The notes under the pieces: generated by a model
Databases searched by the model: none
Seen by the model: only the letters and a program-made list of their open reading frames with translations
Told to the model about the DNA's origin: nothing
Translations under genes and position numbers: made by a program
Part shown: piece after piece, positions 15,982 to 62,078 of the stretch
How the letters are laid out: every line of letters starts with the position of its first letter
Position numbering within the stretch: the first letter of the stretch is position 1
Source of the DNA: Lachnospiraceae bacterium
Lineage (GTDB): Bacteria; Bacillota; Clostridia; Lachnospirales; Lachnospiraceae
Assembly: GCA_024687125.1 (NCBI GenBank)
Contig: JAILFA010000036.1
Location: forward strand, 37,801-101,800
Direction: 5' to 3'
Length of the DNA: 64,000 bases

Positions 15982-16009
15982 AAAATATCATATGATATTT
16001 TATATCAGA

Positions 16010-16372
16010 TCAGCCGATGGCTTTCTGAACAGCGGAGATAACACGATCCGCCTGGAAAGGCTTAACGATGAAATCCTTAGCGCCGGCCTGGATGGACTCG
16101 ATGACCATCGCCTGCTGACCCATGGCGGAACACATGATGCAGACCGCATTGGGATCCACTGCCTTGATACCCTTAAGAGCACCGATACCGTCGAGCTCCG
16201 GCATGGTGATATCAAGCGTCACCAGATCGGGCTGCAGTTCCTTGAACTTATCGATCGCCATCTGACCGTTCTCGGCCTCACCCACGACCTCATAGCCACC
16301 CTTGGTCAGGATGTCCTTAAGCATCATGCGCATGAATGCCGCGTCGTCTGTGATCAGAATCTTCTTAGCCAT
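16010..16372 (-). CDS. cheY: Chemotaxis response regulator CheY (single receiver domain)
   Basis: ILITDDAAFMRMML, DITMPELDG, SAMGQQ, FIVKPF as in Firmicute CheY. Confidence 0.9.
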   Translation of the reverse strand: MAKKILITDDAAFMRMMLKDILTKGGYEVVGEAENGQMAIDKFKELQPDLVTLDITMPELDGIGALKGIKAVDPNAVCIMCSAMGQQAMVIESIQAGAKDFIVKPFQADRVISAVQKAIG

Positions 16373-16446
16373 AAAATCCGTCCCTCCTGCATCGTCGGAA
16401 TAGCACAGTAACGTGCCTGTTCTTTAGACACTTACATACATTGGTC

Positions 16447-16475
16447 ATTTTACAGTAAAAGAATCGGGTTGTCAA
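16447..16475 (-). promoter_or_regulatory. Sigma-A promoter of cheY
   Basis: TTGACA-17 nt-TAAAAT on the minus strand. Confidence 0.75.
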
Positions 16476-16491
16476 CTACTTCATATCGCCC

Positions 16492-17352
16492 TCAGATATT
16501 CCCGAGCAGCACGCGTTTCAGATATCTCTGCGCGGTTTTCCGAAGCTGTTCCATGCACGCAATGTCCGTCGCCGGCTCCCGCATCCTGAATCTCGGAAAA
16601 TACCTTGTGATATGGAGGATCATCTCCGGATCGATCCCCGCGAGCCAGGCTGCTTCCCGCTCCATATCCGCGGGGGAGTCATTCAGTCCCGGCACGATCA
16701 GGCTCGTCACCTCGACGTGAGATACGGCGGCGGCACGGGTGATCGTGTTCATTACGGTCTTCAGATCACCGCCGAGTCTCCTGTAGCCCTCTTCGGTGAA
16801 CACCTTGAGATCTATGTTCCACGCATCGATGACCGGCAGGATCTCGTCGAGCACCGTGTCCGTGACACACCCGTTCGTGACAGCCACGTTTTTCATGCCC
16901 GACCCATGGATGAGACGCCCGGCATCCCTGACGTATTCCCAGCTGATGAGCGGTTCGTTATAGGTATACGCCACGCCGAGATTGCCCTCCGGCATCGCCG
17001 AAAACTCCTCTGCCAGCGCGCAGAGCTCCTCGGGCGGGATCATGCGGACCGGAAGCCCCGGCATGTCGTCGCCGCCCTCCGCGGGCTGAGCGATCTCATG
17101 GTTCTGGCAGAACGGGCAGGCCAGATTGCAGCCGAAGCCGCCGATCGAAAGGATCATGCTTCCCGGATAGAAATCAGCCAGCGGCTTTTTCTCGATCGGA
17201 TCCAGTGCAATGCTCGTCACCGCTCCGTAATTCAGCAGCCGGATCTCACCGCCCTGTACACCCCGCGCGAGGCACACGCCCCTCTGTCCCTCGCGGAGTC
17301 TGCATCCGTGCGGACAGGTGCCGCAGGTAAGTGTTCCCTGTTCCTGTGTCAT
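16492..17352 (-). CDS. AmmeMemoRadiSam-type radical SAM enzyme (AmrS-like)
   Basis: N-terminal CxxCPHxC, DPIEKKPL, radical SAM CNLACPFCQN, YTYNEP; start at the ATG at 17352. Confidence 0.85.
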   Translation of the reverse strand: MTQEQGTLTCGTCPHGCRLREGQRGVCLARGVQGGEIRLLNYGAVTSIALDPIEKKPLADFYPGSMILSIGGFGCNLACPFCQNHEIAQPAEGGDDMPGLPVRMIPPEELCALAEEFSAMPEGNLGVAYTYNEPLISWEYVRDAGRLIHGSGMKNVAVTNGCVTDTVLDEILPVIDAWNIDLKVFTEEGYRRLGGDLKTVMNTITRAAAVSHVEVTSLIVPGLNDSPADMEREAAWLAGIDPEMILHITRYFPRFRMREPATDIACMEQLRKTAQRYLKRVLLGNI

Positions 17353-17353
17353 A

Positions 17354-19783
17354 TCATATCCCCGCGCCTGCCCCGGTGACACGGAACATGATCTCTCTGG
17401 TCATTCCCTCGCAGGCGATGGTGACTCTGCCTTCGCCGGTCCTGCCGTTCGTCCGCACATAAAAGCCGGTCATGCCGCCGCGGAAGGCCGTTACCTCCGG
17501 ACCGATCAGCGAGACGGCACCGCTTGCCGACAAAGAAACCCCCTCCTGAAAGTACGGCAGGACGCCTCCGTTTTGATCCACCATGCGGATCCGCACGGAA
17601 GCGGCATCCCAGGCATCCTCCTCACGCAATAAATAACAGCCGTTATTGTCAATCTCCGCGCCGATCCGGATCTCCATCCGGTGTGAGAGCACAGCGGATC
17701 TTGTGATGCTCTCGGCCGCTTCGCCGCCGCGGATCGCCTCAAAGCGATAGGTGAGCGCCGTCCCGCCCCAGTTGCCGATATACTTGCCGTAAAGACGGAC
17801 CGCCTCCTCCATGGTAATGTGGTCGACCATCATCATCTTTGCCGCTTCGAGCTTTGTCCTGGGCGGAAGAGAATCCATTCCGTACTTTGCGACAGCCCTG
17901 AGCAGACGCTTGATCTGCGCGGCCTGCGCTTTGGTGTACGGCTCATTCTTTTCGATCAGATCCCCGACAAAGTCATCGATCAGGATCGGCGGATGCGGCA
18001 GGGACGGATACTCCTCAACGTCCGGCCAGAACTCGGCGATGAACTCGTCATTCTTGTACATCCGGACACTGTCGGCATTCGTGAACGCATACAGCTTCGT
18101 CAGCTGCCCGGCGGGATGCTCGCCGATATCCATCGTGCTGCTGATCGCGAACACATCATGATCGTCTCCCTGCGAAGCCCACAGGTACGCCGCAAGCTTG
18201 GGATTGCGGAACATATCCATAACGCCGTGGTAGCAGATGCGGTCGCCGCTGCCGAAATCGCGATGCGTGTTGTAGTCAAACATGCACCAGGCAAACTCGC
18301 CGGCGATGCCGTCCTGCTCGAAGGCGTCATTCATCACACGCGCATGGCGCAGGGCGTGCGCTGTACGGTGCAGCTCGTCGTCAAACGCCTTGGTCGGGAA
18401 CATATGCCCGTTGTTTTCCGTGATCAGATAGCCCCTGGAGAGATCGGGCGTGACATCCTTTTTATCTGAGACACCCGCGTTCGTACCGTTGTGCAGGAAG
18501 TCATTGTAGGTGTAGACATCCTCGAGGAGCTGGCTCTTTTTCAGGTAGCGCACGCCGCCGGTGGGACGTGTCGTATCGAGTTCATGGGCGATCCGGTTTG
18601 TTTTTGTATAAAACGCCTCGTCATCCTGGGACTCATTGATCCGAACTCCCCAGATAAAGATCGAAGGATGGTTGCGGTACTGCAGGATCATCTCCCGCAC
18701 GTTTTCGCACGCCTGCTCCTTCCAGGCGTCCCCGCCGATATGCTGCCAGCCCGGGATCTCCATGAACACAAGGAGTCCCAGCTCGTCGCAGCGTTCGATA
18801 AAGCTCTGTGCCTGCGGATAGTGCGAGGTCCGCACCGCGTTGACCTGAAGCTCGGATTTCAGGATGTCCGCGTCCTCCCTCTGCAGACGGTCCGGCATCG
18901 CATACCCGTTGTATGCATAGCACTGGTGGCGGTTCAGGCCCCGGACCGTGATACGTTCGCCGTTGATGTAAAGCCCGTCGGCATTGAACCGGATGGTGCG
19001 GAAACCGAAGCGGTCCGCTTTTTCATCGATCTGTTCACCGCCGGTCACGATCTCGGTGCGGACGGTATAGAGCACGGGACTATCCGGCGACCACGGACGG
19101 ATGCCGCGGATCTCCCAGACAGAGGCGGCTTTCGACTGACCGGCGGGAAACGTCTGGCGGTGCGAAGCGATCTCCTCTCCCTGCTCGTTCAGAACATGAC
19201 AGATAAGCGAGATCTTTTCCTGCGCCGGCCGGGAGATCGTTGTCTCCACGGACAGGACAGCCGAGGAGGCTCGCACCCTGTCCGTCCGGATGCAGATGTC
19301 CTCGATGTGCAGAGGGGAACCGACCTCGAGATAAGCACCGCGGTACAGTCCTCCATAGGTCATGTAATCGATCACAAAGCCGAACGGCGGCTGATCGAGT
19401 GTCTCATTGCTGTCAAGGCGCACGGCGAGCACATTCTTTTCGCCCGCCGGTGCCAGGAAGTCTGTCAGATCCATCGTGAACGCCGTGTATCCGCTTTTGT
19501 GCGTACCGATCTCCTCGCCGTTCAGATACACCGTTGCCTCGTGCGCCGCCCCCTCGAGGGTCAGGAACACGCTCCGATCCTCCCAGCTGTTCTCCGTGAG
19601 GAAAACCTTGCGGTATCCGCTCACCATCTGGTAGATATGCTCGTCAAAGTAGTTAAACGGTGTCTGCACCACGCTGTGCGGGAGCACGACATTCTCTCCC
19701 CCCGCCGGCGCGTCTGCCCCTCTGATCTCCTCGGTCCATTCCTGATAAAATGTCCAGTCCCTGTTCCATGCCGTTTTTTTCAT
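17354..19783 (-). CDS. Glycoside hydrolase family 2 (beta-galactosidase-like)
   Basis: GLNRHQ, VRTSHYP, RNHPSIFIWGVRINE, WCMFDYNT. Confidence 0.92.
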   Translation of the reverse strand: MKKTAWNRDWTFYQEWTEEIRGADAPAGGENVVLPHSVVQTPFNYFDEHIYQMVSGYRKVFLTENSWEDRSVFLTLEGAAHEATVYLNGEEIGTHKSGYTAFTMDLTDFLAPAGEKNVLAVRLDSNETLDQPPFGFVIDYMTYGGLYRGAYLEVGSPLHIEDICIRTDRVRASSAVLSVETTISRPAQEKISLICHVLNEQGEEIASHRQTFPAGQSKAASVWEIRGIRPWSPDSPVLYTVRTEIVTGGEQIDEKADRFGFRTIRFNADGLYINGERITVRGLNRHQCYAYNGYAMPDRLQREDADILKSELQVNAVRTSHYPQAQSFIERCDELGLLVFMEIPGWQHIGGDAWKEQACENVREMILQYRNHPSIFIWGVRINESQDDEAFYTKTNRIAHELDTTRPTGGVRYLKKSQLLEDVYTYNDFLHNGTNAGVSDKKDVTPDLSRGYLITENNGHMFPTKAFDDELHRTAHALRHARVMNDAFEQDGIAGEFAWCMFDYNTHRDFGSGDRICYHGVMDMFRNPKLAAYLWASQGDDHDVFAISSTMDIGEHPAGQLTKLYAFTNADSVRMYKNDEFIAEFWPDVEEYPSLPHPPILIDDFVGDLIEKNEPYTKAQAAQIKRLLRAVAKYGMDSLPPRTKLEAAKMMMVDHITMEEAVRLYGKYIGNWGGTALTYRFEAIRGGEAAESITRSAVLSHRMEIRIGAEIDNNGCYLLREEDAWDAASVRIRMVDQNGGVLPYFQEGVSLSASGAVSLIGPEVTAFRGGMTGFYVRTNGRTGEGRVTIACEGMTREIMFRVTGAGAGI

Positions 19784-30121: not shown

Positions 30122-30757
30122 TTATTCTCCGTTTCCGAGGATCAGCGCCCTGCCGTCCCTGATCTGCACCCTGCCCTGCGCGATCAGACCGATCGCCTTC
30201 GGCAGGATGATCCACTCCGCCTGTTCCATAACCCTTTTCTGCAGGATCTCGGGAGTATCGTCCTGCTGAACCTCCACTGCCTTCTGCAGCAGGATCGGTC
30301 CGGTATCGACGCCCTCGTCGACAAAGTGCACCGTCGCCCCCGTGACACGCACGCCCCTTTTGAGTACCCCTTCATGCACATGCAGGCCGTAGTAACCCTT
30401 GCCGCAGAACGAAGGGATCAGAGAAGGATGGATATTGATGATGCGGCCCGAAAACGCCCGGATCACCTCCGGCGGGATCGTGGCCAGAAATCCTGCCAGG
30501 ACTACCAGATCCGGCGCGACCTCATCAAGGGCATCTGCCAGTGCCCTGTGAAAGAGTTCGCGGTCGGCAAAATCCCTGGCCGAGACCACCCGGGAGGGAA
30601 TCCCCGCCCTTTCCGCGCGCTCCAGCGCACCGGCGCCGTGATTGTTTGAGATAACGCATGTTATTTTAACATCCGGAAGACTGCCCTCCCGGATCCGGTC
30701 GATGATCGCCTGCAGATTGGTCCCGCCGCCGGAGACCAGGACCGCGATATTCAGCAT
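30122..30757 (-). CDS. purN: Phosphoribosylglycinamide formyltransferase
   Basis: SGGGTNLQA, INIHPSL, GATVHFV. Confidence 0.96.
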   Translation of the reverse strand: MLNIAVLVSGGGTNLQAIIDRIREGSLPDVKITCVISNNHGAGALERAERAGIPSRVVSARDFADRELFHRALADALDEVAPDLVVLAGFLATIPPEVIRAFSGRIINIHPSLIPSFCGKGYYGLHVHEGVLKRGVRVTGATVHFVDEGVDTGPILLQKAVEVQQDDTPEILQKRVMEQAEWIILPKAIGLIAQGRVQIRDGRALILGNGE

Positions 30758-32300: not shown

Positions 32301-32359
32301 AGCACTCCTTTCTTTAAGTAAAAATAATATAATATCTAGTGATATGATTCAAGTATAAA

Positions 32360-35781: not shown

Positions 35782-36903
35782 TTACTCCTTTTCCTCTTCC
35801 ACTTGCTGTTCTTCCTCGGCTACACGCGAGGAAAGAAAAATGTTTTCCCTGATCGCCTCCTCGTCCGTCGGCACCAGGGCCAGATACTCCTTCATCATCT
35901 GGGCCGCTGTATCGTAGCTGCCCATGTGCTCATAAGCGGCAACCATGTTGCGCATCAGCGCCGCGTTCTGCCGGTCGTCATTCAGGCCCAGCCCGATCTG
36001 GAAATCCGTCAGTGCGTCACCGTAGCTGCCCATGCGCATCTCACAGACTCCCAGGGCGTTATAGATGCTCGCCTGTGACTGGTCGTCCTGGAGAAACCTC
36101 CGATATACACTGATCGCGTAGCTGTCGTCCCCCAGATCCTGCGCGACCTCCCCTAATAAAATAACAATTGGTATTCTTACGTCGGACCGCTCTTCCACCG
36201 TCTCGTTATTGGCTTCCTCGAGATAGCGCTTGGCCTCCTCGTTGTTTCCGAGAGCGTAATAGAATCTGCCCTTTTCAAAGCTCGTCATGGCTTCCGCGTT
36301 TTCCGACAGGATCGAATCCAGCATCTTCCTGCCCTCCGCGGTATACCCTGCGTCACTCATCCCCTGATAGATGGACAGGATCCTGTCATACTGGCCGGGA
36401 CTGCGGGACAGGATGATCTCAAAATCCTCGTCCGCCCGTTCCCTGTCGCCCTGCCGCAGATAGCACAGACCGCGCAGATAATGCGCGTCCTCGTTGCCCT
36501 TGTCCAGATCAAGGATCGCCGTGTAGACTTCGATCGCACGGACATCATTCCCCTGGTCCACAAAGGTCTGCGCCAGATAACAGGCGATGTCCACAGCCCT
36601 GCTGTCCGGGATCCCGCCGCACAGGTCCAGCGCCTCGGTAAAGGAGGCCTCGGCCGCGGCATAGTCCCCGAGGGAGTATTCGGCGATCCCTTTGGCACGG
36701 TAGATGTCCGCCGACTTTTCTCCGTTGTCCATCGCCATGCGGAACTGTTCAAGCGCACCGTTGTAGTCATGCGCCGTGAGCAGTTCGATCCCTGTATCAT
36801 AGGAGGATTCTTCGCCGCCAAAGGGCATGGTACAGCCCGTCAGCAGGACGAGAAGCCCGGCCAGGATAAACGGAGCGGACTTTTTCCGTGAAAACAGCTT
36901 CAT
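35782..36903 (-). CDS. TPR-repeat lipoprotein
   Basis: Lipobox LTGC after a signal peptide; multiple TPR helices. Confidence 0.82.
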   Translation of the reverse strand: MKLFSRKKSAPFILAGLLVLLTGCTMPFGGEESSYDTGIELLTAHDYNGALEQFRMAMDNGEKSADIYRAKGIAEYSLGDYAAAEASFTEALDLCGGIPDSRAVDIACYLAQTFVDQGNDVRAIEVYTAILDLDKGNEDAHYLRGLCYLRQGDRERADEDFEIILSRSPGQYDRILSIYQGMSDAGYTAEGRKMLDSILSENAEAMTSFEKGRFYYALGNNEEAKRYLEEANNETVEERSDVRIPIVILLGEVAQDLGDDSYAISVYRRFLQDDQSQASIYNALGVCEMRMGSYGDALTDFQIGLGLNDDRQNAALMRNMVAAYEHMGSYDTAAQMMKEYLALVPTDEEAIRENIFLSSRVAEEEQQVEEEKE

Positions 36904-44197: not shown

Positions 44198-44335
44198 CAC
44201 GGACCTCCTTAGCCTGATGCTGTCGTAATCGTTCTATTTTTTATCCATAACAGAGGGTATGTCAAGAAAAGAACTTCTATTATTACAGGGGAATTATATC
44301 AAACCAAATGTTATTGAATAGCCCAGGTGCCATTT

Positions 44336-44363
44336 AGTTTACATAATAACTTTGACTGTATTC
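44336..44363 (-). other. dif-like site (exact B. subtilis-type XerD arm)
   Basis: Minus strand GAATACAGTCA-AAGTTA-TTATGTAAACT; right arm identical to the B. subtilis dif arm, left arm divergent. Confidence 0.45.
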
Positions 44364-44677
44364 GTTTTGTTTGGAATCTCATTTTTTGGGATTCAATTTT
44401 TCGTCAAATCTCGAAACCCGCGTTAATTGGGGATGTCAATTCTCGCGTTGTCGAAATGTCCCCAATTTCCACAGAGTTTTCCACGATGCTCTTTCCGGCC
44501 TTCCTGGTGGATCCGCCCTGCTTTTGTCGAGAAATTTGCGGAATTTTTCACACAATTCTGAAAGAATCGGCGAGTTTTTTGCTTACATAATATGCATTAC
44601 TGTTCGATTATGTAACCTTGTTTAATAACCGTTGATATTTTATTGGTTCACAGAATACCGAGCGTTTTTACCCATTT

Positions 44678-47215: not shown

Positions 47216-47275
47216 AACACTTGCATTATATATCAAAAAAGCGTTTAATAGTAGCGTTGGAAAGGAGCACATTCT

Positions 47276-48283
47276 ATGGAAAACCTGAAGATCCCGAAGG
47301 GGTATGAATCCCCCCTCTCCATTCATGACACACAGGTCGCGATCAAGACCGTCAAGGATTTCTTCCAGGATCTTTTCGCGCAGCGCATGGGACTGCTGCG
47401 TGTGACCGCACCGCTTTTCGTCGATCCTCTGAGCGGTCTCAACGACGACCTTAACGGCGTGGAACGCCCCGTGGATTTCGTCTGTGCGGACGGCGAACGG
47501 GATGCGCAGATCGTCCAGTCGCTCGCCAAATGGAAGCGCTACGCGCTGAAAGCTTACGGTTTTCAGACCGGCGAAGGGCTCTATACGGATATGAACGCGA
47601 TCCGGCGTGATGAGATCACGGACAATATCCACTCCGTCTATGTTGATCAGTGGGACTGGGAACGCAGCATACAGGAATCCGAAAGGACCATGGAGTATCT
47701 GCAGGAAACCGTGCGCACCATCTATAAGGTCCTGCGCAAGACAGAGAAATTCATGGCCATCAACTACGATTACATCGAAGAGATCCTGCCCAATGATATC
47801 TTCTTTATCACAACACAGGAGCTCGAGGACATGTTCCCCGACAACACCCCGAAAGAAAGGGAGTACTATATCGCTAAGGCCAAAGGCGCGGTCTGCATCA
47901 CGCAGATCGGCGACCTGCTCGCCTCCGGAAAAAAACACGACGGCCGCGCTCCGGACTATGACGACTGGACACTGAACGGCGATATCGTCGTATACTACCC
48001 TGTGCTGGATATCGCGCTGGAGCTCTCCTCGATGGGGATCCGCGTTGACGCAGCCTCCCTTTCCTCTCAGCTGAAGAAAGCCGGCTGCACGGAGAGAGCC
48101 TCTCTCCCGTTCCAGAAGAGCATTCTGGACGGCAGACTGCCTCTCTCCATCGGCGGCGGCATCGGCCAGTCGCGCCTGTGCATGTTCTTCCTGCGCAAGG
48201 CACATATCGGTGAAGTACAGAGTTCCCTCTGGCCCAGGGACGTCATCGAGGAAGCGGAGAAACAGGGCCTTCATCTTCTGTAA
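47276..48283 (+). CDS. asnA: Aspartate-ammonia ligase
   Basis: SLAKWKR, YVDQWDWE, HDGRAPDYDDW, IGGGIGQSR; AAAGGAG RBS; TTGCAT-17-TTTAAT promoter. Confidence 0.96.
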   Translation: MENLKIPKGYESPLSIHDTQVAIKTVKDFFQDLFAQRMGLLRVTAPLFVDPLSGLNDDLNGVERPVDFVCADGERDAQIVQSLAKWKRYALKAYGFQTGEGLYTDMNAIRRDEITDNIHSVYVDQWDWERSIQESERTMEYLQETVRTIYKVLRKTEKFMAINYDYIEEILPNDIFFITTQELEDMFPDNTPKEREYYIAKAKGAVCITQIGDLLASGKKHDGRAPDYDDWTLNGDIVVYYPVLDIALELSSMGIRVDAASLSSQLKKAGCTERASLPFQKSILDGRLPLSIGGGIGQSRLCMFFLRKAHIGEVQSSLWPRDVIEEAEKQGLHLL

Positions 48284-48337
48284 AAAGCAGCATGAAATAT
48301 CGGCTGTTTTTATAATAAGTTATATCAAAACTTAATA

Positions 48338-48455: not shown

Positions 48456-48480
48456 AGATAACATCCGCTATTTTGTGTTG

Positions 48481-48513: not shown

Positions 48514-49197
48514 ATGGAACTTTTTACTCAGGAAGACGGTTATTATGCACTCACTTCGTTGGGGACAGCACTGATATTTGACATCATCGAACTGATCATT
48601 GTGCTGTTCATCCTGCGCGTACGTACATCCAAAGAGGACCGGAAGTCCTCAGTGATCTCCGCCAGGCAGCTGGTCTACTGCTCCGCAGCACTGGCCATCG
48701 GCTTCATCCTGTCCTTTGTCAAGATCGTCCATCTGCCCTGGGGCGGCTCCGTCACGCTGTGCTCCATGCTCTTTATCACGCTGATCGGCTACTGGTACGG
48801 GCCTCGGATCGGCCTCATGGCTGCCTTTGCCTACGGCCTGCTTCAGTTTGTTCAGGGCGGCGGCTCCTACATGCTCTCACCTCTGCAGGTGTGCATGGAT
48901 TACATCTTTGCCTTTACAGCGCTGGGCCTTGCCGGATTCTTCTCAAACAAAAAACACGGCCTGGTAACAGGATATATCGTAGCGATCCTGGTACGCGGCC
49001 TGTTCCATTCGATCGGCGGCTACCTGTTCTGGATGGATTATATGCCCGAAGACTTCCCCAAGGCTCTCACCTTCGCCTACCCGATCATTTACAATTACGC
49101 ATATATTCTGCTCGAAGGAGCGCTCACTGTTGTGATCCTGCTCTTCCCGGCTGTAAGAAACGCGCTCGCACGGGTCAAGGAGACTGCTCTCTCCTAA
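48514..49197 (+). CDS. thiT: ECF S-component thiamine transporter ThiT
   Basis: LPWGGSVT, YGLLQF, QVCMDY, YNYAY; TPP riboswitch upstream. Confidence 0.92.
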   Translation: MELFTQEDGYYALTSLGTALIFDIIELIIVLFILRVRTSKEDRKSSVISARQLVYCSAALAIGFILSFVKIVHLPWGGSVTLCSMLFITLIGYWYGPRIGLMAAFAYGLLQFVQGGGSYMLSPLQVCMDYIFAFTALGLAGFFSNKKHGLVTGYIVAILVRGLFHSIGGYLFWMDYMPEDFPKALTFAYPIIYNYAYILLEGALTVVILLFPAVRNALARVKETALS

Positions 49198-52100
49198 TTC
49201 TCCCTGACCGGTACCGCGCGGCCGGCCGTAAAGGACCAGATCCATCTCTCGGTGACCTTCCGGCCCGTGACACGCTCCAGTGCATCGGCGTACAGTGCAA
49301 GCTGTACGCCGTATTTTTCCGCGAGTTCCGATGCGTCTCCCGTAATCCTGTCCGTCTTGTAGTCCAGGAGGATAATGCTTTCCCCCTCCGTGAAATAGAC
49401 GTCGATCACCCCCTGGATGAGCACCATCTCGCCGGCAGGCAGTCCCTTCTGCACATCGGCGGCATCCATCCCCATCATGAACTGTTTCTCTCTGCAGAGC
49501 TCTCCTCTGCGGTAAGCCTCAGCAAAACGTATGCCGAGCGGGTCCGCTAAAAACTTCAGAACATCATCCGGCCTGACGGTCTCCGATGCACCCTCTTGGA
49601 GCCGCTTTTTCTGCTCTTGCTTTATCATCCATTTTTTAACGATATTACGTATATTATCGCATGATTCAGATATTAAATCATGGTTTGATACATCGATCTG
49701 ATCCAGGATTTCCGCATCTAAAAGTTCCATGACCTTATGGTATGCCGTACCGCGTTCCGCACCTGTAAGCTGTCGGGTTGTGTTTCTGTCTTCAGAGGCT
49801 GTCGGCGGCTCCGGAATTGACCGATAAAGTTCATTTCTGCCCGGACCCTCCGATTCCTCAGCCAGGATCCGCTCCTTAAGCTCCGTGACCGTCGTCTTGA
49901 CAAACAGTCGTTCAAGATCGCTGTGCGTATAGGAAAATGCAAGCTTTTCACGAAGTTCGGCATTTTGATAACATTTGTTATTGCTTGTGTTGACTACACT
50001 GGTCAGTGCTTCTTTTCGCCCTGTTTTACTGCTCATCGCGGGCGGTATCACTGCGGATCCACCGGTGCATTCGTCGGCAGCCTCCCGGAGTACCGCCAGC
50101 TCCGCCCGGATCGGCACACCTCCTTCGCGCATCGCGGCTGTCAGCAGATCAAGAAAGCTTTGCGCGCGGTACCGGCTGCGATAGGATACCGCAGTCTGAT
50201 CCCTCTGTCCCGATCCTTGGGCATTTATCCGCGCGATCTCCTCCAGAAGTGCCTCAGCCTTGTTCTGTGCGAGAAGGCCTGTCATGATCAGCCTGTCCTT
50301 AGCCCGGGTCATCGCCACATACAGCACCCGGATTTCTTCCCCCAGACTCTCCTCCCGGATCCTGTCCGCGACCGCCAGGCGCTTCAGCGTCGAGACGCTC
50401 ACTCTTGTCTCGGAATCCACACATTTCGCGCCGATCCCCGCGTGCTCATCGACGAGCACCGTACCGTTTTCATCCATACGGTTGAACTGTCTGGCAAGAC
50501 CCGAGACAAAAACGATGGGAAACTCCAGGCCCTTACTCTTATGAATGCTCATGAGACGGACCAAATCGGCGTCCTCAGAGAGCGTAGATGCTTCGCCCAG
50601 ATCGATCTCCGCAAGCCGGTACTGCTCCAGGCGCTGCGTGAACGCCGCGAGTCCGTGTCCTCCGGAAGCCGCAAAGGCGGCCGCGCGGATCAGCAGCATC
50701 CGGACATTGGCCTGTCTGCGCCTGCCTCCGGGCATCGCGGAGACGATCTCCAGATACCGGGTCTGCGCCAGGATCTCCTCGAGAAGATCATGTACGGACA
50801 TGCGCATCGACCGGTCTCTGAAATCCTCCAGCTCTTTCAGAAAGGCACGGCATTTCACGGAGAGCGGATCCTGTCCGTCGTTCTTCGAGCGTGCTGTCAG
50901 CGCTTCATAAAATCCGTGGCCGTCCCGCAGATCCGCCGTTCGGATCTCCGCGAGCTCCTCATCCGAAAAACCGCCGATGAAGGAGTGCATCACCGCCGCC
51001 AGCGGTATATCCCGAAAAGGATTCTCGATCGCGTGCAGAAGATCGATCAGAAGCCGGATCTCGATCGTCCCGAAATATCCCGCTTTGGATTCCATGTGGA
51101 CCGGGATCCCGCGTGCCGTCAGCACGTCCCGGTAGATCTCATCGACGCCCGAGGCTGTGCGAAGCAGGATTACGATATCGCCGTACCGCACCGGCCGCAT
51201 ACCGCTGTCGCCGTCCCGTACTCTGCCTTTCTCCATGAGCTGCAGGATCCTGTCTGCGACAACGCCTGCTTCCAGCTCCTCTGCAGCCTTTTCCGCACCG
51301 GTGAGCACCCCGCTCATCTCCTCCGGGTCTCCCGCCTCCGTATCGTTATCATCAGGCTCAGCGCTGTCAGTCCCTGTGTCCGCGTCCGCCTGCTCTGCCC
51401 TGTCCGACGTTTTCTCCGCGGCCTGTCCGTCCCGGGAGATCAGCAGAAGCTCCGGGATAAACTCACCGTCCTCGTCCTCCGGACAGGGGATCCCGGGCAC
51501 CAGATGGGCATCCTCATCATAATCCACACCGCCGATATTCGCGGCCATGATTCTCTCATGCACCGCGTTGACGGCATCCAGGATCTCGGGTCTGCTGCGG
51601 AAATTCCGGTGCAGATCGATCCTTCGTTCTGACGGATCCTCTCCGCCGAAGCGGTGCATCTTCTCCGCAAAGATCTCCGGTCTGGCAAGCCGGAACCGGT
51701 AGATGCTCTGCTTGATATCTCCGACCATGAAACGATCCGGGCGGCCCAGGCGTCTCGCGGAGACCGCGTCGAGGATCAGTTCCTGGATCATGTTGCTGTC
51801 CTGGTACTCATCAACCATGATCTCCCGGTAGAACTCCGCATAGGCTAAGGCTGTTTTCGTCGGCTGCGCCTCGCTGATGCTCTTTCCCTCTTCCGGTTCG
51901 TCCAGGAGAACCTGCAGTGCCAGATGCTCCATATCAGAGAAATCGATCAGATTCTTTTCCCGCTTCTTTTCGTCGAGCCGCGTGATGAACTCCATCGTCA
52001 GAAGCACAAGCTCCCGCGTCATCTCCGCCGCCTTCTTTTCCCGGGCCGCAAACTCCCGGGGCGGCGTGTTAAAATATCGCTTGATATTTTTGCCGACCGC

Positions 52101-53069
52101 GTCTTTGATCCCATTCCTGAGGTTTTTGACACGATCCCGCTTTATCCTGTCCACCGCGTCGTCACGTTTTGCGGAAAGTTTGCCGAACAGTTCGTGATCC
52201 AGCAGATGATCATACATCTCGGGGAAAGATTCCAATGCGGCCAGTGCGGTAAGTGATTCAATATCATCTGTTATTGTATCAGCGTACATATAAGGTCCGC
52301 CCGGCATACCGGCAATCCTGAGGAGCTTTTCCAGTTCCCGAATGCAGTCCCTGAGCTCCTCCCGGATCCTGACAGTCACACCGGTGACCCATGCCGGTGT
52401 CTTACTGCCTGGCGTAAAAAGTTCTTCATCCGCGGTCAGCGTGTTCAGAAGTTCCTTCAGACTCCGCATGGGCCAGGGCATGCTCTTCGCATAGCGGTAG
52501 AGCTTCATGATCTCCGTTTCCGCGGGCTCATCGCCCGCTCCCCCGGACAGACAGTCCATGCACCTCAGGAACTCCGGTGTCCCCTCGGCATACGCGTCCT
52601 CCAGGACCTGCGCCAGCACCTCCTGTTCAAGAAGCTTCATCTCCCCCTCGTCGCTCACGCGAAAAGACGGATCCAGACCGATCGCGGAAAAGTTGTTGCG
52701 GAGCAGATACTGGCAGAACGCGTCGATCGTCATGATCTTTGCGTGCGGAAGCAGCATCTCCTGTCTCCGAAGATGACGGTTGTCCGGCTGTGCGGCGATC
52801 CTCTTTGCGAGCGCGCCCGCGATCTTTTCCCGCATACCGGATGCGGCTGCCCTGGTAAAGGTCACCACAAGGATCCTGTCGATGTCACAGGGAGGATCAT
52901 CCTCTGCGATACGTCTGACAATGCGTTCCGCAAGTACCGCGGTCTTGCCGGAGCCGGCAGCCGCAGACACGAGCAGATCACAGCCTCCGGCCCTGATCAC
53001 CTCCAGTTGTTCATCCGTAAAGGAGAATCCCTCTTTTTTCTGATCGTCTGTCATTTCCATTCCGTTCAT
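49194..53069 (-). CDS. addA: Helicase-nuclease AddA
   Basis: SAAAGSGKT, VDEYQD, GDIKQSIYRFR, SIHKSKGLEF, YVAMTRAK, QGVID...DYKT. Confidence 0.96.
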   Translation of the reverse strand: MNGMEMTDDQKKEGFSFTDEQLEVIRAGGCDLLVSAAAGSGKTAVLAERIVRRIAEDDPPCDIDRILVVTFTRAAASGMREKIAGALAKRIAAQPDNRHLRRQEMLLPHAKIMTIDAFCQYLLRNNFSAIGLDPSFRVSDEGEMKLLEQEVLAQVLEDAYAEGTPEFLRCMDCLSGGAGDEPAETEIMKLYRYAKSMPWPMRSLKELLNTLTADEELFTPGSKTPAWVTGVTVRIREELRDCIRELEKLLRIAGMPGGPYMYADTITDDIESLTALAALESFPEMYDHLLDHELFGKLSAKRDDAVDRIKRDRVKNLRNGIKDAVGKNIKRYFNTPPREFAAREKKAAEMTRELVLLTMEFITRLDEKKREKNLIDFSDMEHLALQVLLDEPEEGKSISEAQPTKTALAYAEFYREIMVDEYQDSNMIQELILDAVSARRLGRPDRFMVGDIKQSIYRFRLARPEIFAEKMHRFGGEDPSERRIDLHRNFRSRPEILDAVNAVHERIMAANIGGVDYDEDAHLVPGIPCPEDEDGEFIPELLLISRDGQAAEKTSDRAEQADADTGTDSAEPDDNDTEAGDPEEMSGVLTGAEKAAEELEAGVVADRILQLMEKGRVRDGDSGMRPVRYGDIVILLRTASGVDEIYRDVLTARGIPVHMESKAGYFGTIEIRLLIDLLHAIENPFRDIPLAAVMHSFIGGFSDEELAEIRTADLRDGHGFYEALTARSKNDGQDPLSVKCRAFLKELEDFRDRSMRMSVHDLLEEILAQTRYLEIVSAMPGGRRRQANVRMLLIRAAAFAASGGHGLAAFTQRLEQYRLAEIDLGEASTLSEDADLVRLMSIHKSKGLEFPIVFVSGLARQFNRMDENGTVLVDEHAGIGAKCVDSETRVSVSTLKRLAVADRIREESLGEEIRVLYVAMTRAKDRLIMTGLLAQNKAEALLEEIARINAQGSGQRDQTAVSYRSRYRAQSFLDLLTAAMREGGVPIRAELAVLREAADECTGGSAVIPPAMSSKTGRKEALTSVVNTSNNKCYQNAELREKLAFSYTHSDLERLFVKTTVTELKERILAEESEGPGRNELYRSIPEPPTASEDRNTTRQLTGAERGTAYHKVMELLDAEILDQIDVSNHDLISESCDNIRNIVKKWMIKQEQKKRLQEGASETVRPDDVLKFLADPLGIRFAEAYRRGELCREKQFMMGMDAADVQKGLPAGEMVLIQGVIDVYFTEGESIILLDYKTDRITGDASELAEKYGVQLALYADALERVTGRKVTERWIWSFTAGRAVPVREN

Positions 53070-56000
53070 CCGCCGATCTCTTCCCGGATCCTCTGCATGG
53101 CATCGTTTTCGTTCATCTCCCTGAATTCCCGGAAGGAGTATCCGTCCACCTGTACATCAAAGCCGCAGACACCGCGATACGCGCAGAATCTGCAGGGCTC
53201 CTTCTTTTTATAGCGATAAGGGGACACCGCGATCTCACCGCCGCGGATCCTGGACCCCAGCGATCGGACTGTCTCTCCGACATAGCGCGCGGCAAGCCCG
53301 ATATCCTCTCCGGACAGCACGTGCGAGTTGGCGGAAAGGGAACCGCCCTTGACAAGCTTCACCGGAATGATGTCCGAGGCACCCGTCGTCATAAGATCGC
53401 TGTCCATAAGTGAAAGCACCGCGGGATCACTGTTCACGATCCCGGTGAAGGCGAGCTTTTTCCGAAGCATGCCATTAATATCGCCCGTTATTTTTTCGCG
53501 GTCCCCCGCGATCATCGGATCCTGAACCCGATAATAGAGCATGCCGGCAGGGGATACCTCCAGCTGCGGCTCAAGTCTTCTCTGTTCCCGGAGGGCAACA
53601 GCCAGATAGAGCGGCAGCTGCAGCTCTACGCCGTGCACGAGCAGTGTCGGATCAAATTTCCGGCTGCCGGATTTGTAGTCGACGACACGCAGATACTTTA
53701 CGCCCTCACTGACACAGATATCCAGACGGTCGATCCTGCCCTTAAGGATCATGGAATCCGTGATCTGTTCACGAAAGCTCCTTTCGGAAAACGCCGGCAT
53801 AAAGCTTCCCTTGCCGATCTGATACTGCAGGGTGTCCACCGTGCGCAGCAGGATCCGCCGGATCCTCTGCAGCATATATAAATAACGCTTGTTACTTAAA
53901 AGGATGTTGTTTCTGTACTGCTCAGCGTAGCCTTTGAGCGCTTCATCGATGAACTCCGCTGCCTGCGCGGAGGAGAAGCTGCGCCAGTCCAGACCGTGCC
54001 CCGTGAGCGCATGATCGAACTGCTCGAGTGCCGAGTGATAGATATTGCCGACATCTGCCGGATTCAGGAGATAACGCTCCTCTTCCCTGAGGCGCAGACC
54101 ATAGTCCGCGAAGTGCGCATAAGGACAGGAGGCAAATTCCTCCAGCCTGCGCACGCTGTTTTCCATGACCTCACCATATAAAATATCAGCTGTTTTTTTA
54201 TCGATGGAGGACGGCTGATAGGTGCGATACGCGGCCCGGACCAGTTCGCCGAGGATCGCGTGCGCCTCCTCACCCGTCCGGACAAGCTCCGCCGCAACGC
54301 TTAAATATTCCTTTGCCTCTTCGGAATCCATTCGTCCGTCAGCGAAATCCCGCATCCCCGCGGAGAGAAGCACCGCCGTGTTCGCAGGAGTCTCCGCGCG
54401 TTCGGTAAGGGACAGCTGCTGCGCCTGCCGGACAGCGAGTCCGGGATACATCGACCGCAGCCTCCGGATCAGCTCCGCGGGTCTGAGACTCCTGCCGTCC
54501 ATTCCCATGAGCGACCAGGAAAGACACAGCGTCTGTGAAGGTCTCGTAAGGTTCAGGTACAGGTATTCCCGTTCGTAGGCGAGCTTCTGTGCGGGACCGG
54601 GAGCCAGTTCCACGCCGGTCCCCGCCTGCGCGAGAAACTCCCTGTCGATCTCGTTTAAGATGCCGCCGCCCGCATCACTCTTGGGAAGCAGGGTATCATT
54701 GACGCCGAGGAAGAAGATGATCTTCTTTTCCCCAAGTCTGGTACGTTCCATATCGCCGACGATCACGCGGTCGATGCTCGCCGGTAACATACCAATTGAT
54801 ATTTTATTAATCCCGACACGCAGCAGATCCAGATACTCCCGCACACTGACGGTCTGATCACCGAGCAGAGCCACCATCTGATCGATCAGTTCCAGCATTC
54901 GCGGACAGATCTGCTCATATTCTCGGGCCAATGCCGTCTGACCTGTCTCCTGCATGGAGACAGCCATATTCGCAAGCTGCTCTCCGACCCCCAGATTCCT
55001 GAGAAGTTCCTCAAGAGCCTGCGAAAAGCCCCGTACATTCCCTGCCCTGCTGTCATACATCGGAGCGATCAGTCCTGTCAGCCGCTCGCGAAGGCTGTTC
55101 ATCTGTGTGAGCAGTTCGCTCTGCTCTTTCTCTTCGCGATGCAGCCAGACTGTCCTTAAGAACCTGTCCTCCCAGCGCTTTCTTCCCCGGATCCCGAGTG
55201 TCTCCAGATAGATCTGCATGCGGTCCACCGCTTCCCGGGAAAATCCGGTGAGCGGGCAGCGCATGAACCTGAGGACAGCCGCCGGGGTGTAATCATCCCG
55301 CAGGATCTCCAGGGCGCTCTCCACGCATTCCACCAGAGGATCCATCTCCACTCTGCCGGTCCGGTCGAGGTAGACCGGGATCCCGTACAGTGCTGCCGTC
55401 TTTTCCATGAGCGGTCCGTAGGTCTCCGGATCGGTGGAAAGCACCGCGAACTGCTCATAGGTAAGGCTCTCATCTCTCCGCAGCGCTCTGCGGATCTGCA
55501 GACAGCACATGGCACATTCTTCCGCGGGATCCGCCGCCTCGGTGAGCAGCAGAGAGTCTCCTGTCTCCCCCGTAAAAACCCGCTGCTCCCGGAACAGATT
55601 CTCCTCGAGGTGCGAAAGCGGCGGATTCTGTTCCAACCGTTTGACGGGATGACCGTCCAATATAATATCATCTGATATTTTATCTTTTCCGACGAGTCTT
55701 GTCAGATCAGCCACGGTCCTGTAGGTCAGGGAAAAGACACTGTCCTCCGGCCCGCGGGCACCTGTAAGCTCTGCGGGATCCATGACCAGAGAGATCGTGA
55801 GACTCCTGGCAGTCTGCAGGATAGATAATAACACCTGATATTGAATTGGGGTAAAGCCGGTGAAGCCGTCCATCACGACTACGGAATCGCGGAGAAGCTC
55901 CGAATCCGGGATCTTTTCCGCGAGGATCTGAAAGGTCTCCTCAGCGGTGGTAAAATGCCCGGCCAGATACTCCCCAAAGGCGATCTGGATCCTTCTGATC

Positions 56001-56470
56001 TCACTGAGCCTCGCCGCGAGCTGTCCGTGCAGACCGCATACCCCGATCAGACGCTCGAGGTCCCCGGAGGTGATCCTGTACTGCAGAAACTCGGAGAGAA
56101 TGGATTTGATCTCGTCGATGAAACCCGGCTGGCGCAGGCGGGATCCGAACATCGGAAGCTCATCCCGGATCTGCTCCGCGACATGCCGGAGCACCAGCGT
56201 TTTGCCCATGTCATCGAGCACGGGGACATCGGGGCCTCCGAGTTCATCAAATATACGGTATCTGAGCCTGGAAAGACTGAGCACGTCGATGTTCATGATC
56301 GCGTGCCTGGGATGCAGCTTCACAACATCGCGCTGTGCCTGCATGGTGAACTGATCAGGGACAATGATGAAAAACCGGGTATCCGGTGACTGGATGCTTT
56401 CTTCGATCACCTTCCGGTACAGGGTCGTACTCTTCCCTGCACCGGAGGCTCCGAAGCAGAAATGAAGCAT
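53066..56470 (-). CDS. addB: Helicase-nuclease AddB
   Basis: GASGAGKS, IVPDQF, DGFTGFT, CPYAHF, GRIDRLD, DYKSG, C-terminal CxxCxxxxxC. Confidence 0.95.
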   Translation of the reverse strand: MLHFCFGASGAGKSTTLYRKVIEESIQSPDTRFFIIVPDQFTMQAQRDVVKLHPRHAIMNIDVLSLSRLRYRIFDELGGPDVPVLDDMGKTLVLRHVAEQIRDELPMFGSRLRQPGFIDEIKSILSEFLQYRITSGDLERLIGVCGLHGQLAARLSEIRRIQIAFGEYLAGHFTTAEETFQILAEKIPDSELLRDSVVVMDGFTGFTPIQYQVLLSILQTARSLTISLVMDPAELTGARGPEDSVFSLTYRTVADLTRLVGKDKISDDIILDGHPVKRLEQNPPLSHLEENLFREQRVFTGETGDSLLLTEAADPAEECAMCCLQIRRALRRDESLTYEQFAVLSTDPETYGPLMEKTAALYGIPVYLDRTGRVEMDPLVECVESALEILRDDYTPAAVLRFMRCPLTGFSREAVDRMQIYLETLGIRGRKRWEDRFLRTVWLHREEKEQSELLTQMNSLRERLTGLIAPMYDSRAGNVRGFSQALEELLRNLGVGEQLANMAVSMQETGQTALAREYEQICPRMLELIDQMVALLGDQTVSVREYLDLLRVGINKISIGMLPASIDRVIVGDMERTRLGEKKIIFFLGVNDTLLPKSDAGGGILNEIDREFLAQAGTGVELAPGPAQKLAYEREYLYLNLTRPSQTLCLSWSLMGMDGRSLRPAELIRRLRSMYPGLAVRQAQQLSLTERAETPANTAVLLSAGMRDFADGRMDSEEAKEYLSVAAELVRTGEEAHAILGELVRAAYRTYQPSSIDKKTADILYGEVMENSVRRLEEFASCPYAHFADYGLRLREEERYLLNPADVGNIYHSALEQFDHALTGHGLDWRSFSSAQAAEFIDEALKGYAEQYRNNILLSNKRYLYMLQRIRRILLRTVDTLQYQIGKGSFMPAFSERSFREQITDSMILKGRIDRLDICVSEGVKYLRVVDYKSGSRKFDPTLLVHGVELQLPLYLAVALREQRRLEPQLEVSPAGMLYYRVQDPMIAGDREKITGDINGMLRKKLAFTGIVNSDPAVLSLMDSDLMTTGASDIIPVKLVKGGSLSANSHVLSGEDIGLAARYVGETVRSLGSRIRGGEIAVSPYRYKKKEPCRFCAYRGVCGFDVQVDGYSFREFREMNENDAMQRIREEIGG

Positions 56471-57649: not shown

Positions 57650-57667
57650 TAAATAACCTCCGATATT

Positions 57668-59790: not shown

Positions 59791-59925
59791 ATGTCTGAGT
59801 GGTCTTTAGCGGACACTTTCCTAAATATAGATTATACGGAAAGAGCAAGTGAAAAACAACGAAAAAACGTTATATATCAGAAGTTATTTTTTAATTTCTT
59901 TTTATTTCGATCAAATTTTCCGCAA

Positions 59926-59954
59926 TTGACACCAGTACATGTTCATTTTATGAT
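59926..59954 (+). promoter_or_regulatory. Sigma-A promoter, probably leaderless transcript
   Basis: TTGACA-17-TATGAT, then 7 nt to the ATG at 59962; no SD. Confidence 0.8.
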
Positions 59955-59961
59955 AAAGTGT

Positions 59962-61449
59962 ATGCGAAAAATACTCACAGTTGGAAAATGGATCCTGTTT
60001 CTGATCCTGCTGATCGCCGCTGTCGCCGTCGCCGCACGGATCACCGGGCGGAAAGCGAGCGAGCGCAAATATGCGGATCTTTACGCCGCGGACAACGCGG
60101 ATGTCCTGTTCCTCGGCTCCTCCCACCTGATCAACGCCGTCAATCCCGTGCAGCTCTATCAGGAGTACGGGATCGCTTCCTATAATCTCGGCGGGCACGG
60201 AAGTATCCTGCCCGCGACCTACTATGAGCTGCTCTGCGCGCTGGACGTCTTTTCCCCGCAGCTGGTCGTCGTCGACTGCTACATGATGGACAGGGATTAT
60301 CACTATGTCGACATCATGACCGACGACTTTACGGACGAAGACCGTGCAAGCTCCGTGAGCCAGCTTCATCTCAACCTCGATGTCTTTCCCCTCTCCCGCA
60401 CCAAGCTGCACGCCGTGCGGGATCTGATCTCCGATCAGAGCATACAGATGGAGTTTCTTTTCCCCTTTATCACTTACCACAGCCGCTGGTCCGAACTGGA
60501 AGGCGACGACTTTGCCCCCTCCTCCGCTTCCGCAAAGGCCAACCATCTGCTGGGTGCGGAAATCCGCATGAACGTCGCCTGGCAGATCGCCCCGCATACC
60601 ATGGGAGACGATGAACTGTCCGACGAGCCCCACATGGGCGAGCAGTATCTGCAGATGATCCTGCAGACGTGCCGTGAACGGGGGATCGATGTCGCCCTGA
60701 CCTTCCTCCCCTGCAATTCCACAGCCGTCGACCGTCAGATGGCGGCCAGGATGGAAGCGGTCGCCCAGGCTGAAGGCATTCCCGCCCTGAACATGCTGGA
60801 GGACGACCCGACGGATCTGCATACCGATTATAATGATGAAGGACACCTGAACCTGCTCGGTATGACCAGAACGACAGACAGGATCGGTTCCTTCCTGCGG
60901 GACGCGTACGCTCTGCCCGACAGACGCGGCGATGCCGCCTATCAGCTCTGGGCAGACCGCGCCGCGGAATATGACCGGAGCTGCCGGGAACAGCTGTCGG
61001 AATCGACGTCTCTGACGGAAGCGCTGCTCCTTCTGGCCGGTTCTCCAGACGCGCTAAGCGCCGTTCTCTATCTGTCCGGATCCGGAAAAGCCGTCGCCGA
61101 CCCGGCCGTCCTGCACCTGACGGACGCTCTTGCTCCGGGAAACACTCTGCGGGATGCGCCTCCGGAAAGCCCCCTCCTGCTCGTGCTGCCGTCCTCCGGC
61201 GAAGCGCTCGGGTTCGCCGGATATCAGGTGACAGACTGGGAGGAAAGCGCGATCGGTCCTCTCGAGGTCATCCAGGTTGAAAACTTTACCGGCGTTTATC
61301 TGCATCATGACGAATCCGACAACCTGCTGAACATGGACGAGGAACGTCTGGCCGACGCTCAGCTGATCCTGCTCTCCGCGGACGGATCCGAAATAGAAGA
61401 ACATTTGATATTTAATTATCCCCGAATGATAACAGGCGATACCGAATGA
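59962..61449 (+). CDS. Exported SGNH-like protein (DltD/AlgJ-like fold possible)
   Basis: N-terminal TM; FLGSSH, SYNLG, DEGHLN motifs; start is 59962, not 59623. Confidence 0.75.
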   Translation: MRKILTVGKWILFLILLIAAVAVAARITGRKASERKYADLYAADNADVLFLGSSHLINAVNPVQLYQEYGIASYNLGGHGSILPATYYELLCALDVFSPQLVVVDCYMMDRDYHYVDIMTDDFTDEDRASSVSQLHLNLDVFPLSRTKLHAVRDLISDQSIQMEFLFPFITYHSRWSELEGDDFAPSSASAKANHLLGAEIRMNVAWQIAPHTMGDDELSDEPHMGEQYLQMILQTCRERGIDVALTFLPCNSTAVDRQMAARMEAVAQAEGIPALNMLEDDPTDLHTDYNDEGHLNLLGMTRTTDRIGSFLRDAYALPDRRGDAAYQLWADRAAEYDRSCREQLSESTSLTEALLLLAGSPDALSAVLYLSGSGKAVADPAVLHLTDALAPGNTLRDAPPESPLLLVLPSSGEALGFAGYQVTDWEESAIGPLEVIQVENFTGVYLHHDESDNLLNMDEERLADAQLILLSADGSEIEEHLIFNYPRMITGDTE

Positions 61450-62078
61450 GCGGCGGGTTTGTTTCATATCATCTGTTATTCATTATCAACAGCGTCGCTC
61501 TCGGAGCGGGTCTCGCCATGGACGCGTTTTCCGTCTCCGTCGCCAACGGCCTGCGGGAGCCGAAGATGCTCCGCCGGCGCATGTTCGCGATTGCAGGGGT
61601 CTATGCCGGTTTCCAGTTCCTGATGCCCCTGACGGGATGGTTTCTCGTCCACACGGCGATCACCGTGTTTTCCGCCATGGAGCCGTTCATTCCCTGGATC
61701 GCCCTGCTGCTCCTTGTGTTCATCGGCGGCAAGATGATCCTGGAGGGGATCCGGGAATCACGGGACGCCGGCAGTGACGCCCCCGCTCACTCCCCCGCCG
61801 AGGAAAAGAGCGTGGTCTCCCTTCGCCTGCTGCTCGTTCAGGGGATCGCCACCTCGATCGACGCTCTGTCCGTCGGTTTCACCATCGCTGAGTATCAGGT
61901 ACTGGAAGCGCTGTGCAGTTCACTGATCATAGGTTCCATAACGCTTGTTATTTGCCTGGCCGGACTCCGGCTCGGCAAGGCCTTCGGGCTGCGCCTTGCC
62001 CACCGCGCCACGATCCTCGGCGGCATCATTCTCATTGCGATCGGCCTCGAGATCTGGATCTCGGGCGTCTTTTTCTGA
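61446..62078 (+). CDS. mntP: Manganese efflux pump MntP family
   Basis: GLAMDAFSVS, FQFLMP, GIATSIDAL, GGIILIAIG. Confidence 0.9.
   Translation: MSGGFVSYHLLFIINSVALGAGLAMDAFSVSVANGLREPKMLRRRMFAIAGVYAGFQFLMPLTGWFLVHTAITVFSAMEPFIPWIALLLLVFIGGKMILEGIRESRDAGSDAPAHSPAEEKSVVSLRLLLVQGIATSIDALSVGFTIAEYQVLEALCSSLIIGSITLVICLAGLRLGKAFGLRLAHRATILGGIILIAIGLEIWISGVFF

Follow-up and report, generated by a model that had tools for sequence, protein, structure and literature searches.

A dispersed 14-bp palindrome clustered around addAB in a Lachnospiraceae genome and a TetR-family protein as its candidate binder

The stretch of DNA analyzed here, 64 kb from a Lachnospiraceae bacterium (contig C122, positions 37801–101800) and called the window in the following, carries among others purN, purE, valS, asnA, addA, addB, purH, and mntP. 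Nearly all of its genes lie on the minus strand, which is the leading strand by GC skew. A 14-letter palindrome, ATAWCR-NN-YGWTAT, is scattered through these genes and the gaps between them. Its copies far exceed chance, those inside addB bear marks of selection, and a TetR-family protein encoded elsewhere in the genome, P0001, is likely to bind them. We consider below whether the clusters might act as positional marks for cell division. The source genome (G000) comprises 3.14 Mb in 155 contigs and is 86% complete.

Twelve exact matches were found in the window, the number given in a preliminary description of this DNA, and none occurred in any of 100 dinucleotide shuffles. With up to one mismatch the total was 25, one more than the 24 claimed, compared with 0.92 on average and at most 3 in the shuffles. 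The additional copy, at 36577, is probably a chance match, because it has GC-rich flanks and a score of only 0.5 with the position weight matrix (PWM) described below. The trend along the window was likewise recovered, with regional counts of 0, 2, 6, and 17 instead of 0, 2, 5, and 17. The six copies quoted as examples were all found where they had been placed; the earlier coordinates denote the starts of 20-mers, and the 14-bp cores, which are listed here, begin 3 bp later. By our own gene calls, 18 of the 25 copies are intragenic, in agreement with the estimate of about two thirds. The sites and the two genes at the center are as follows (window coordinates):

15985..15998: exact site in the intergenic gap that separates a CheY-like gene from a polysaccharide deacetylase gene
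17633..17646: exact site in the GH2 coding sequence (CDS)
30651..30664: exact site in the purN CDS
32332..32345: one-mismatch site, intergenic, upstream of purE
36161..36174: one-mismatch site in the CDS of a TPR protein
41877..41890: exact site in the valS CDS
44625..44638: one-mismatch site in the intergenic gap that separates valS from a DinG-type helicase gene
48297..48310: one-mismatch site, intergenic, after asnA
48458..48471: one-mismatch site, intergenic, before the gene of a thiamine energy-coupling factor S-component
49194..53069, minus strand: addA CDS, with three exact sites
49968..49981: exact site in addA
52074..52087: exact site in addA
52261..52274: exact site in addA
53066..56470, minus strand: addB CDS, the center of the peak, with three exact and three one-mismatch sites
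53478..53491: exact site in addB, alignment column 1155, present in five of five high-GC species
53882..53895: one-mismatch site in addB, column 1000, three of five species
54183..54196: one-mismatch site in addB, column 900, two of five species, two others having a site at column 891
54789..54802: one-mismatch site in addB, column 694, five of five species
55665..55678: exact site in addB, column 376, four of five species
55828..55841: exact site in addB, column 283, five of five species
57653..57666: one-mismatch site in the short gap ahead of purH
59874..59887: one-mismatch site in a divergent intergenic region
61398..61479: three sites (61398, 61429, and 61466; spacings of 31 and 37 bp) spanning the junction of a 495-aa CDS and mntP
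61938..61951: exact site in the mntP CDS

The DinG-type helicase is encoded by a 1198-aa open reading frame (ORF) at 44678–48274 (in the region 44150–48290). Its true start lies near 47214, and the ORF is lengthened by an antisense frame of asnA (47276–48283, plus strand).

The whole source genome was scanned with the motif, and the reversed pattern served as control. There were 48 exact copies, compared with three for the control. As 36 of the copies lie beyond the window, the worry that the consensus had been derived post hoc is answered. The two-nucleotide spacer is specific, as claimed: nine other spacers (0–9 bp) gave 0–12 copies each. The signal also survived preservation of the encoded proteins, with 34 exact copies in coding sequences compared with 1.8 (maximum 4) in 30 synonymous-codon shuffles.

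Selection on the sites was analyzed with a codon alignment of 30 addB genes, including those of five high-GC species. Each of these five has 5–6 sites in the gene, whereas 19 of the 25 others have none and six have 1–2. The sites were formed by substitution, for example with KISIGM in place of EIEVGT and QYQVL in place of QYRVI. Codon choice inside the sites is unusual: isoleucine is encoded by ATA or ATT nine times and never by ATC (5 and 52 outside), and leucine by TTA in six of six cases (3 of 135 outside). The site positions are common to 2–5 of the five species, yet four-fold degenerate positions match those of the source genome at only 32–40%. Some turnover was observed, one site being shifted by nine codons in two species. 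At five of the six sites the alignment shows only substitutions and no indels; the sixth lies within a gappy loop. Because rare codons and amino acid changes have been kept across five species, the alignment indicates that the sites inside addB are under selection. Insertion footprints and drift could be ruled out, since the sites arose by substitution, without indels, at shared positions.

A PWM was built from the 48 exact copies, and at a score of at least 16 it yielded 82 sites in the source genome. According to our own gene caller, by which 90% of the DNA is coding, 49 of them lie in coding sequences, 21 in tandem gaps, 7 in divergent gaps, and 5 in convergent gaps. Two of the 49 are within 60 nt of a start, and the host genes are functionally unrelated. 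Closely spaced pairs at 15 bp occur four times. The clustering of sites per contig exceeded all of 20,000 random placements. The window's contig continues into contig C47 via a split penicillin-binding-protein gene, a join upheld by synteny in the relative G432. Along the joined contigs, the numbers of sites per 10 kb were 0, 0, 0, 0, 0, 2, 1, 3, 5, 11, 0, 6, 3, 4, 0, 0, 0, and 0. The density thus climbs to a peak at addAB and then drops, and what had been described as a density gradient is one flank of this peak. The cluster holds 35 of the 82 sites within 88 kb and is also present in the syntenic G432. A second cluster, with 12 sites, covers a 45-kb polysaccharide locus, its contig join being inferred from a split gene.

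As dnaA is not assembled in the source genome and no dif-like site was matched with a half-site pattern, distances from the origin rest on orthologue anchors in the genome G394, of which 1.2 of 3.55 Mb, between 0 and 268 degrees only, were sampled in 60 windows of 20 kb each. By these anchors the valS-addAB block, at about 93 degrees from the origin, is the only site-rich one. The exceptions among the site-poor anchored blocks are two C47 blocks belonging to the addAB cluster; one of them has seven sites, and its sugar-transport genes anchor at 24 degrees. A model with enrichment in both mid-arms was tested and was not supported, the addAB block alone being rich. The cumulative GC skew peaks near 134 kb in contig C48 (133836–137610), beside an Xer-like recombinase gene, and this is likely the terminus. 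The contig holds no exact copy and one PWM site in 151 kb, compared with 3.9 expected, a depletion that is weak alone.

The motif excess is restricted to certain relatives. In the genus of the source genome, it exceeded the control in 66 of 79 genomes and fell below it in 11 (1293 versus 568 hits). All 101 genomes of the genus g72 were above control by our own reading of the table, with up to 141 sites. Most of the 350 genomes of the family were at background. In three closed genomes addB lies about 75–90 degrees from dnaA; its neighborhood contains sites in G412, G024, G018, and G393 and none in G391, G392, and G394. Site clustering was weak in G362 and G222.

The genus was treated as Butyrivibrio-like, because the four best matches to the Rep protein on the secondary replicon of one of its genomes were Butyrivibrio replicons and one orthologue of P0001 carries the label Lachnospiraceae. 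Contig C3 of the genome G005 is a 271-kb replicon whose Rep3 initiator lies with iterons, ParA, and HU at a skew switch, a layout matching that described for Butyrivibrio chromids (PMC6249431). It holds 17 of the 28 sites of its genome, and the chromids of G398 and G412 are likewise site-rich. Of the 51 exact sites in three closed genomes, chromids carry 20, at a density nine times that of the chromosome (2.27 versus 0.25 per 100 kb). Five chromids with full site lists have 48 sites in total, and 33 of these are no more than 50 kb away from rep, compared with 17 expected. The two megaplasmids of G394 have one site in 548 kb. A chromid Rep was found in none of the five genomes with the largest numbers of sites in the genus, including the source genome (27 of 79 lack one; 81–97% complete).

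Several further features of the secondary replicons were observed. On the G005 chromid, the region from parA to rep (L009:7700–10900) contains many TGTTATATAACA palindromes near parA, which are half-sites of the motif in the opposite arrangement and without spacer, and an extended series of GGTGAC-AAAAAGGGAAT iterons ahead of rep; a 186-aa gene after parA had no Pfam match. A chromid-type Rep3 homologue with 41% identity is present on the main chromosome of the closed genomes G391 (C1:4606818) and G392 (C1:849762), about 60 kb from dnaA, and is possibly an integrated replicon. Several genes of the G005 chromid (larC, HU, a MATE transporter, and a two-component/ATP-binding cassette (ABC) block) occur in or at the edge of site-rich chromosomal regions of the source genome (C18, C47:26070, C75, and C110) or of G432 (C58), which may point to genes having moved between the chromid and the surroundings of addAB.

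For the identification of a candidate binder, GTDB was scanned for two motifs 15 bp apart, which yielded 94 loci; the DNA was fetched for 80 of them, including repeats of one contig or lineage. At least 22 of these 80 carry related TetRs with an xS[TVIP][QAM]P helix (Firmicutes, Saccharibacteria, and others), and at least eight carry another, mainly proteobacterial TetR group, in both cases mostly adjoining the tandem. The tandem was also seen next to other genes. In DPANN archaea, including Woesearchaeota (L110, L127, L138, L157, L161, and L162), it lies upstream of a non-TetR protein of about 95 aa starting with QRSPTLNTVLMVE, apparently a separate family of small regulators with a similar operator. 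In Cetobacterium and other Fusobacteriaceae (L087, L108, L114, L115, L130, L137, L150, L154, and L156), it lies upstream of a nitronate-monooxygenase/FabK-like gene, and at one Fusobacterium locus a related TetR is near the tandem.

Three TetRs with a CSTQP helix are encoded in the source genome: the single-copy P0001 (C2:18814–19368, outside the window) and two paralogues. One paralogue is at C47:58395, and one of the two is 30 kb away from the border of the addAB cluster. The gene of P0001 is part of a housekeeping run of mutY, tetR, HI0933, cmk, and rpsA; in most relatives an RpiR-like gene, its family named from reading the sequence, stands between tetR and HI0933, and it is missing in the source genome. 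Orthologues are present in 42 of 350 family genomes (E below 1e-45, followed by a gap to 1e-33) and in 14 of 14 genomes of the genus, and the 301 genomes of the order gave just two weak matches outside the family. In 24 of the 30 orthologue loci fetched, the motif lies within 160 bp upstream of tetR at no more than one mismatch (13 exact; 1.2% with shuffled sequences), typically starting inside the −10 box, downstream of TTGACA. The motif excess, moreover, tracks the orthologue: 673 motif versus 230 control hits in the 42 genomes with it and 1877 versus 1686 in the 308 others, with a fixed enrichment rule passed by 17 of the 42 and 8 of the 308. The 21 genomes with a paralogue only were not enriched (204 versus 188). 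Taken together, these results make it likely that P0001 binds the motif copies. The earlier proposal of an uncharacterized binder is refined in this respect: a TetR subfamily uses the motif as its operator, and the protein is probably not from an unknown family.

In a Pfam comparison of P0001, TetR_N reached 21.7 bits, just under its cut-off of 24 bits, and TetR_C_33 was above cut-off. The predicted structure (predicted local distance difference test, pLDDT, 94) had exclusively TetRs as top fold matches, and the ESM Atlas gave generic TetR clusters only. Conservation is higher in the C-terminal a8 helix and loop than in the helix-turn-helix (HTH; 0.82 versus 0.75), which suggests a fixed partner. 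For the TetR dimer and the tail of FtsZ (residues 362–396), complex prediction gave a score of 0.02 against a mark of 0.32, which is evidence in neither direction. Two other potential binders, a third ParB_N match on contig C148 and the partner of the chromid ParA, were considered and set aside, as the most site-rich genomes are without the chromid Rep.

The motif differs from parS, the Noc-binding sites (NBS), matS, and the SlmA-binding sites (SBS), as stated before, and also from the RefZ-binding motifs (RBM). SlmA and RefZ are TetR proteins acting on FtsZ placement (PMC3020112, PMC6657595). For SlmA, 52 chromatin immunoprecipitation peaks are reported in E. coli, and SBS are described there as not found in promoters (PMC3020112); on Vibrio chromosome 2, its sites are reported outside the terminus and are said to license division (PMC8826520). 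The system described here shares with SlmA the TetR fold, dozens of dispersed palindromes, here under selection, their presence on a secondary chromosome, and a weak depletion at the terminus. It differs in the motif, in the Firmicutes host, and in having foci instead of a spread over the origin domain. No SlmA model was among the NCBIfam matches of P0001, SlmA chains ranked 12–30 at 16–19% identity among the fold matches, and none was among 13 sequence hits. RefZ, also a Firmicutes TetR, has position-conserved palindromes on the chromosome arms that tune septum placement in Bacillus (PMC6657595). In contrast to its five sites and its action in sporulation, 20–140 sites were found here in a genus without spoIVA (0 of 14), and P0001 is a TetR_C_33 protein that matched no RefZ model. 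An identity of P0001 with SlmA or RefZ was thus rejected, as no family model matched and the site patterns differ.

P0001 resembles local TetR_C_33 (WHG-type) repressors of ABC-transporter/oxidoreductase operons in the type of recognition helix and in the operator, usually a 15-bp tandem upstream of tetR. These repressors, however, have one or two operators and no genome-wide excess, whereas the P0001 orthologue is single-copy in a housekeeping operon, tetR-rpiR-HI0933-cmk-rpsA. The CopY/BlaI cop box, TACAnnTGTA (PMC7253601), has a similar ACA-NN-TGT geometry with other outer bases, and the operator evidence favors a TetR over a winged-helix repressor. Dispersed, position-biased palindromes are a property shared with Noc-NBS, ParB-parS, and MatP-matS, and parS has the same 2-bp-centered symmetry. 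Nevertheless, parS is separate here, Noc was not found, and, unlike matS, the sites are not concentrated at the terminus. Three canonical parS lie beside each of two parA-parB-serS loci of the source genome, on C100 and C108, contigs without the motif; the two loci are probably due to two close organisms mixed in the bin. The motif and its candidate protein thus stand outside SlmA, RefZ, Noc, ParB, and MatP, but resemble SlmA and RefZ in apparent deployment. No account of either was found in the literature, with subscription journals, supplements, and motif databases outside the search.

Next, the division context has to be considered. No Noc was found above the TIGR04285 cut-off in 351 family genomes. 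The absence of spoIVA from 14 of 14 genomes of the genus (present in 8 of 8 in g72) led to the rejection of a role in sporulation only, and any role must therefore include vegetative growth. MinD was not found in the source genome or in G432; it was found in G394, G546, and G362. In Clostridia, minCDE lies between pbp2 and rodA. In the source genome radC-mreBCD-pbp2-rodA-mgsA are contiguous on an unbroken contig (C48:119860–127459) with a gap of 24 bp between pbp2 and rodA. A loss of the Min system in the high-GC clade is possible.

We hypothesized that the clusters, bound by P0001, might be positional marks that keep the division ring off unsegregated DNA, and we assign this reading a probability of roughly 0.45. 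A self-repressing TetR would have kept one promoter operator and gained dozens of further sites; it would be the third TetR to be taken independently into use at DNA sites that mark position and probably relate to division. A stretch of 50–200 kb would be loaded with TetR dimers, or with paired dimers where the spacing of sites is 15 or about 31 bp, and would become a local platform. With an essential chromid present, the platform would surround the chromid origin; where no chromid was found, as in the source genome, it would occupy foci of the chromosome at a distance from the terminus. Of these foci, addAB, about a quarter of the way round the chromosome, is the strongest. The platform would then act on FtsZ placement, a step proposed by analogy with SlmA and RefZ only. 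The sites are selected in unrelated genes, depend on position, and track the origin of an essential second replicon, and this favors a loading platform over a collection of operators. Provided that binding occurs, a positional rather than a transcriptional purpose appears fairly probable, and the division machinery would be a more probable target than DNA tethering. Of the earlier proposal, an uncharacterized dimeric organization or division protein, the selected, clustered, and largely intragenic dimer site has stood, whereas the protein family is probably a known one. More speculative is the idea that a TetR repressor has here been recruited, independently and for the third time, specifically to nucleoid occlusion or division licensing in a clade without Noc, with intragenic operators costing amino acid changes, aimed at the origin of the essential chromid where one exists and chromosomally expanded in a lineage in which Min appears lost; this we regard as tentative.

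Several results weigh against the division reading. On the chromosome the sites form several foci, which is neither an origin nor a terminus macrodomain nor the "everywhere but the terminus" pattern of SlmA. In the source genome, apart from the two C47 blocks named above, the blocks near the origin and the other blocks at 97–115 degrees hold 0–1 sites, and the range is 0–2 when those near the terminus are included. The foci vary between genomes, lying at 48–54 degrees in G391 and at many places in g72, including pyrH-polC-infB and polysaccharide loci, and in G394 the one third of the chromosome that was sampled is close to background (5 versus 2). G546 has 70 sites and also MinD. Unlike SBS, the P0001 locus keeps a promoter operator, and the fold of P0001 is that of a generic TetR, no closer to SlmA than to others. 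The co-occurrence is imperfect, as 9 of the 42 orthologue genomes exceed the control by at most 1 and the eight enriched genomes mentioned above have no orthologue; moreover, the genomes are kin and not independent, so that p-values for the co-occurrence of gene and motif overstate. Lastly, intergenic stretches make up only 10% of the DNA but hold 33 of the 82 PWM sites, a fourfold excess, and some of these sites are near starts; therefore, some sites may serve ordinary regulation.

The alternative that survives best, although we consider it unlikely, is that the TetR-bound clusters tether or segregate DNA by bridging it, anchoring it to the envelope, or regulating condensin, and thereby hold the chromid origin and the chromosomal foci. 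The focal pattern, the 15-bp pairs of the source genome, and the conserved a8 helix and loop with its suggested partner would fit, as would the centering of sites on the chromid origin and their near absence from the G394 megaplasmids. However, the chromids already have their own ParA, small partner gene, and iterons, and the five most site-rich genomes are without a chromid Rep.

Slightly less likely is a global transcription regulator, with the intergenic sites as operators and the intragenic ones as roadblocks or titrating decoys. The nine sites across addAB with their amino acid changes, the lack of a common function of the host genes, the scarcity of CDS sites near starts, the five sites in convergent gaps, and the decay of site density away from the chromid origin all speak against this explanation. 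It draws on the intergenic excess, with 28 of the 33 sites in tandem or divergent gaps, on the repeated richness of polysaccharide loci, and on the motif being a standard TetR operator in other phyla that is predicted to be autoregulatory here; SlmA, too, is reported to activate a promoter (PMC5519180).

Another protein, such as a CSTQP paralogue (e.g., C47:58395), the RpiR neighbor, or a clade-specific protein, could bind the motif while P0001 merely shares the clade. The two paralogues, one of them close to the addAB cluster, the restriction of both orthologue and motif excess to a clade, and the eight enriched genomes without the orthologue are compatible with this. We regard it as improbable, as genomes with paralogues only are not enriched, the RpiR-like gene is missing at the locus of the source genome, and the motif is present in the orthologue's own promoter in most loci. 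Footprints of mobile elements or an artefact of composition or assembly are extremely improbable: the motif is AT-rich and the metagenome-assembled genome shows signs of mixing (the two parAB-serS loci), but the sites lack indels, are conserved in position across species, are spacer-specific, and survive synonymous shuffles, and the addAB cluster recurs in the syntenic G432.

The results bear on two open questions, namely how the septum is coordinated with the chromosome in Clostridia without Noc and how a Firmicute chromid is tied to the cell cycle. A named candidate protein, a likely 14-bp site, site maps, and matched clades with and without the system are now available, and the proposal is testable in cultured Butyrivibrio. 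In addition, the motif is a practical marker of chromid contigs in draft genomes of the genus. If the division reading is true, a single family would document the transition from a local TetR operator, which other phyla still use in the ordinary way, to a mark on the scale of the chromosome; for SlmA and RefZ, this transition has only been guessed at.

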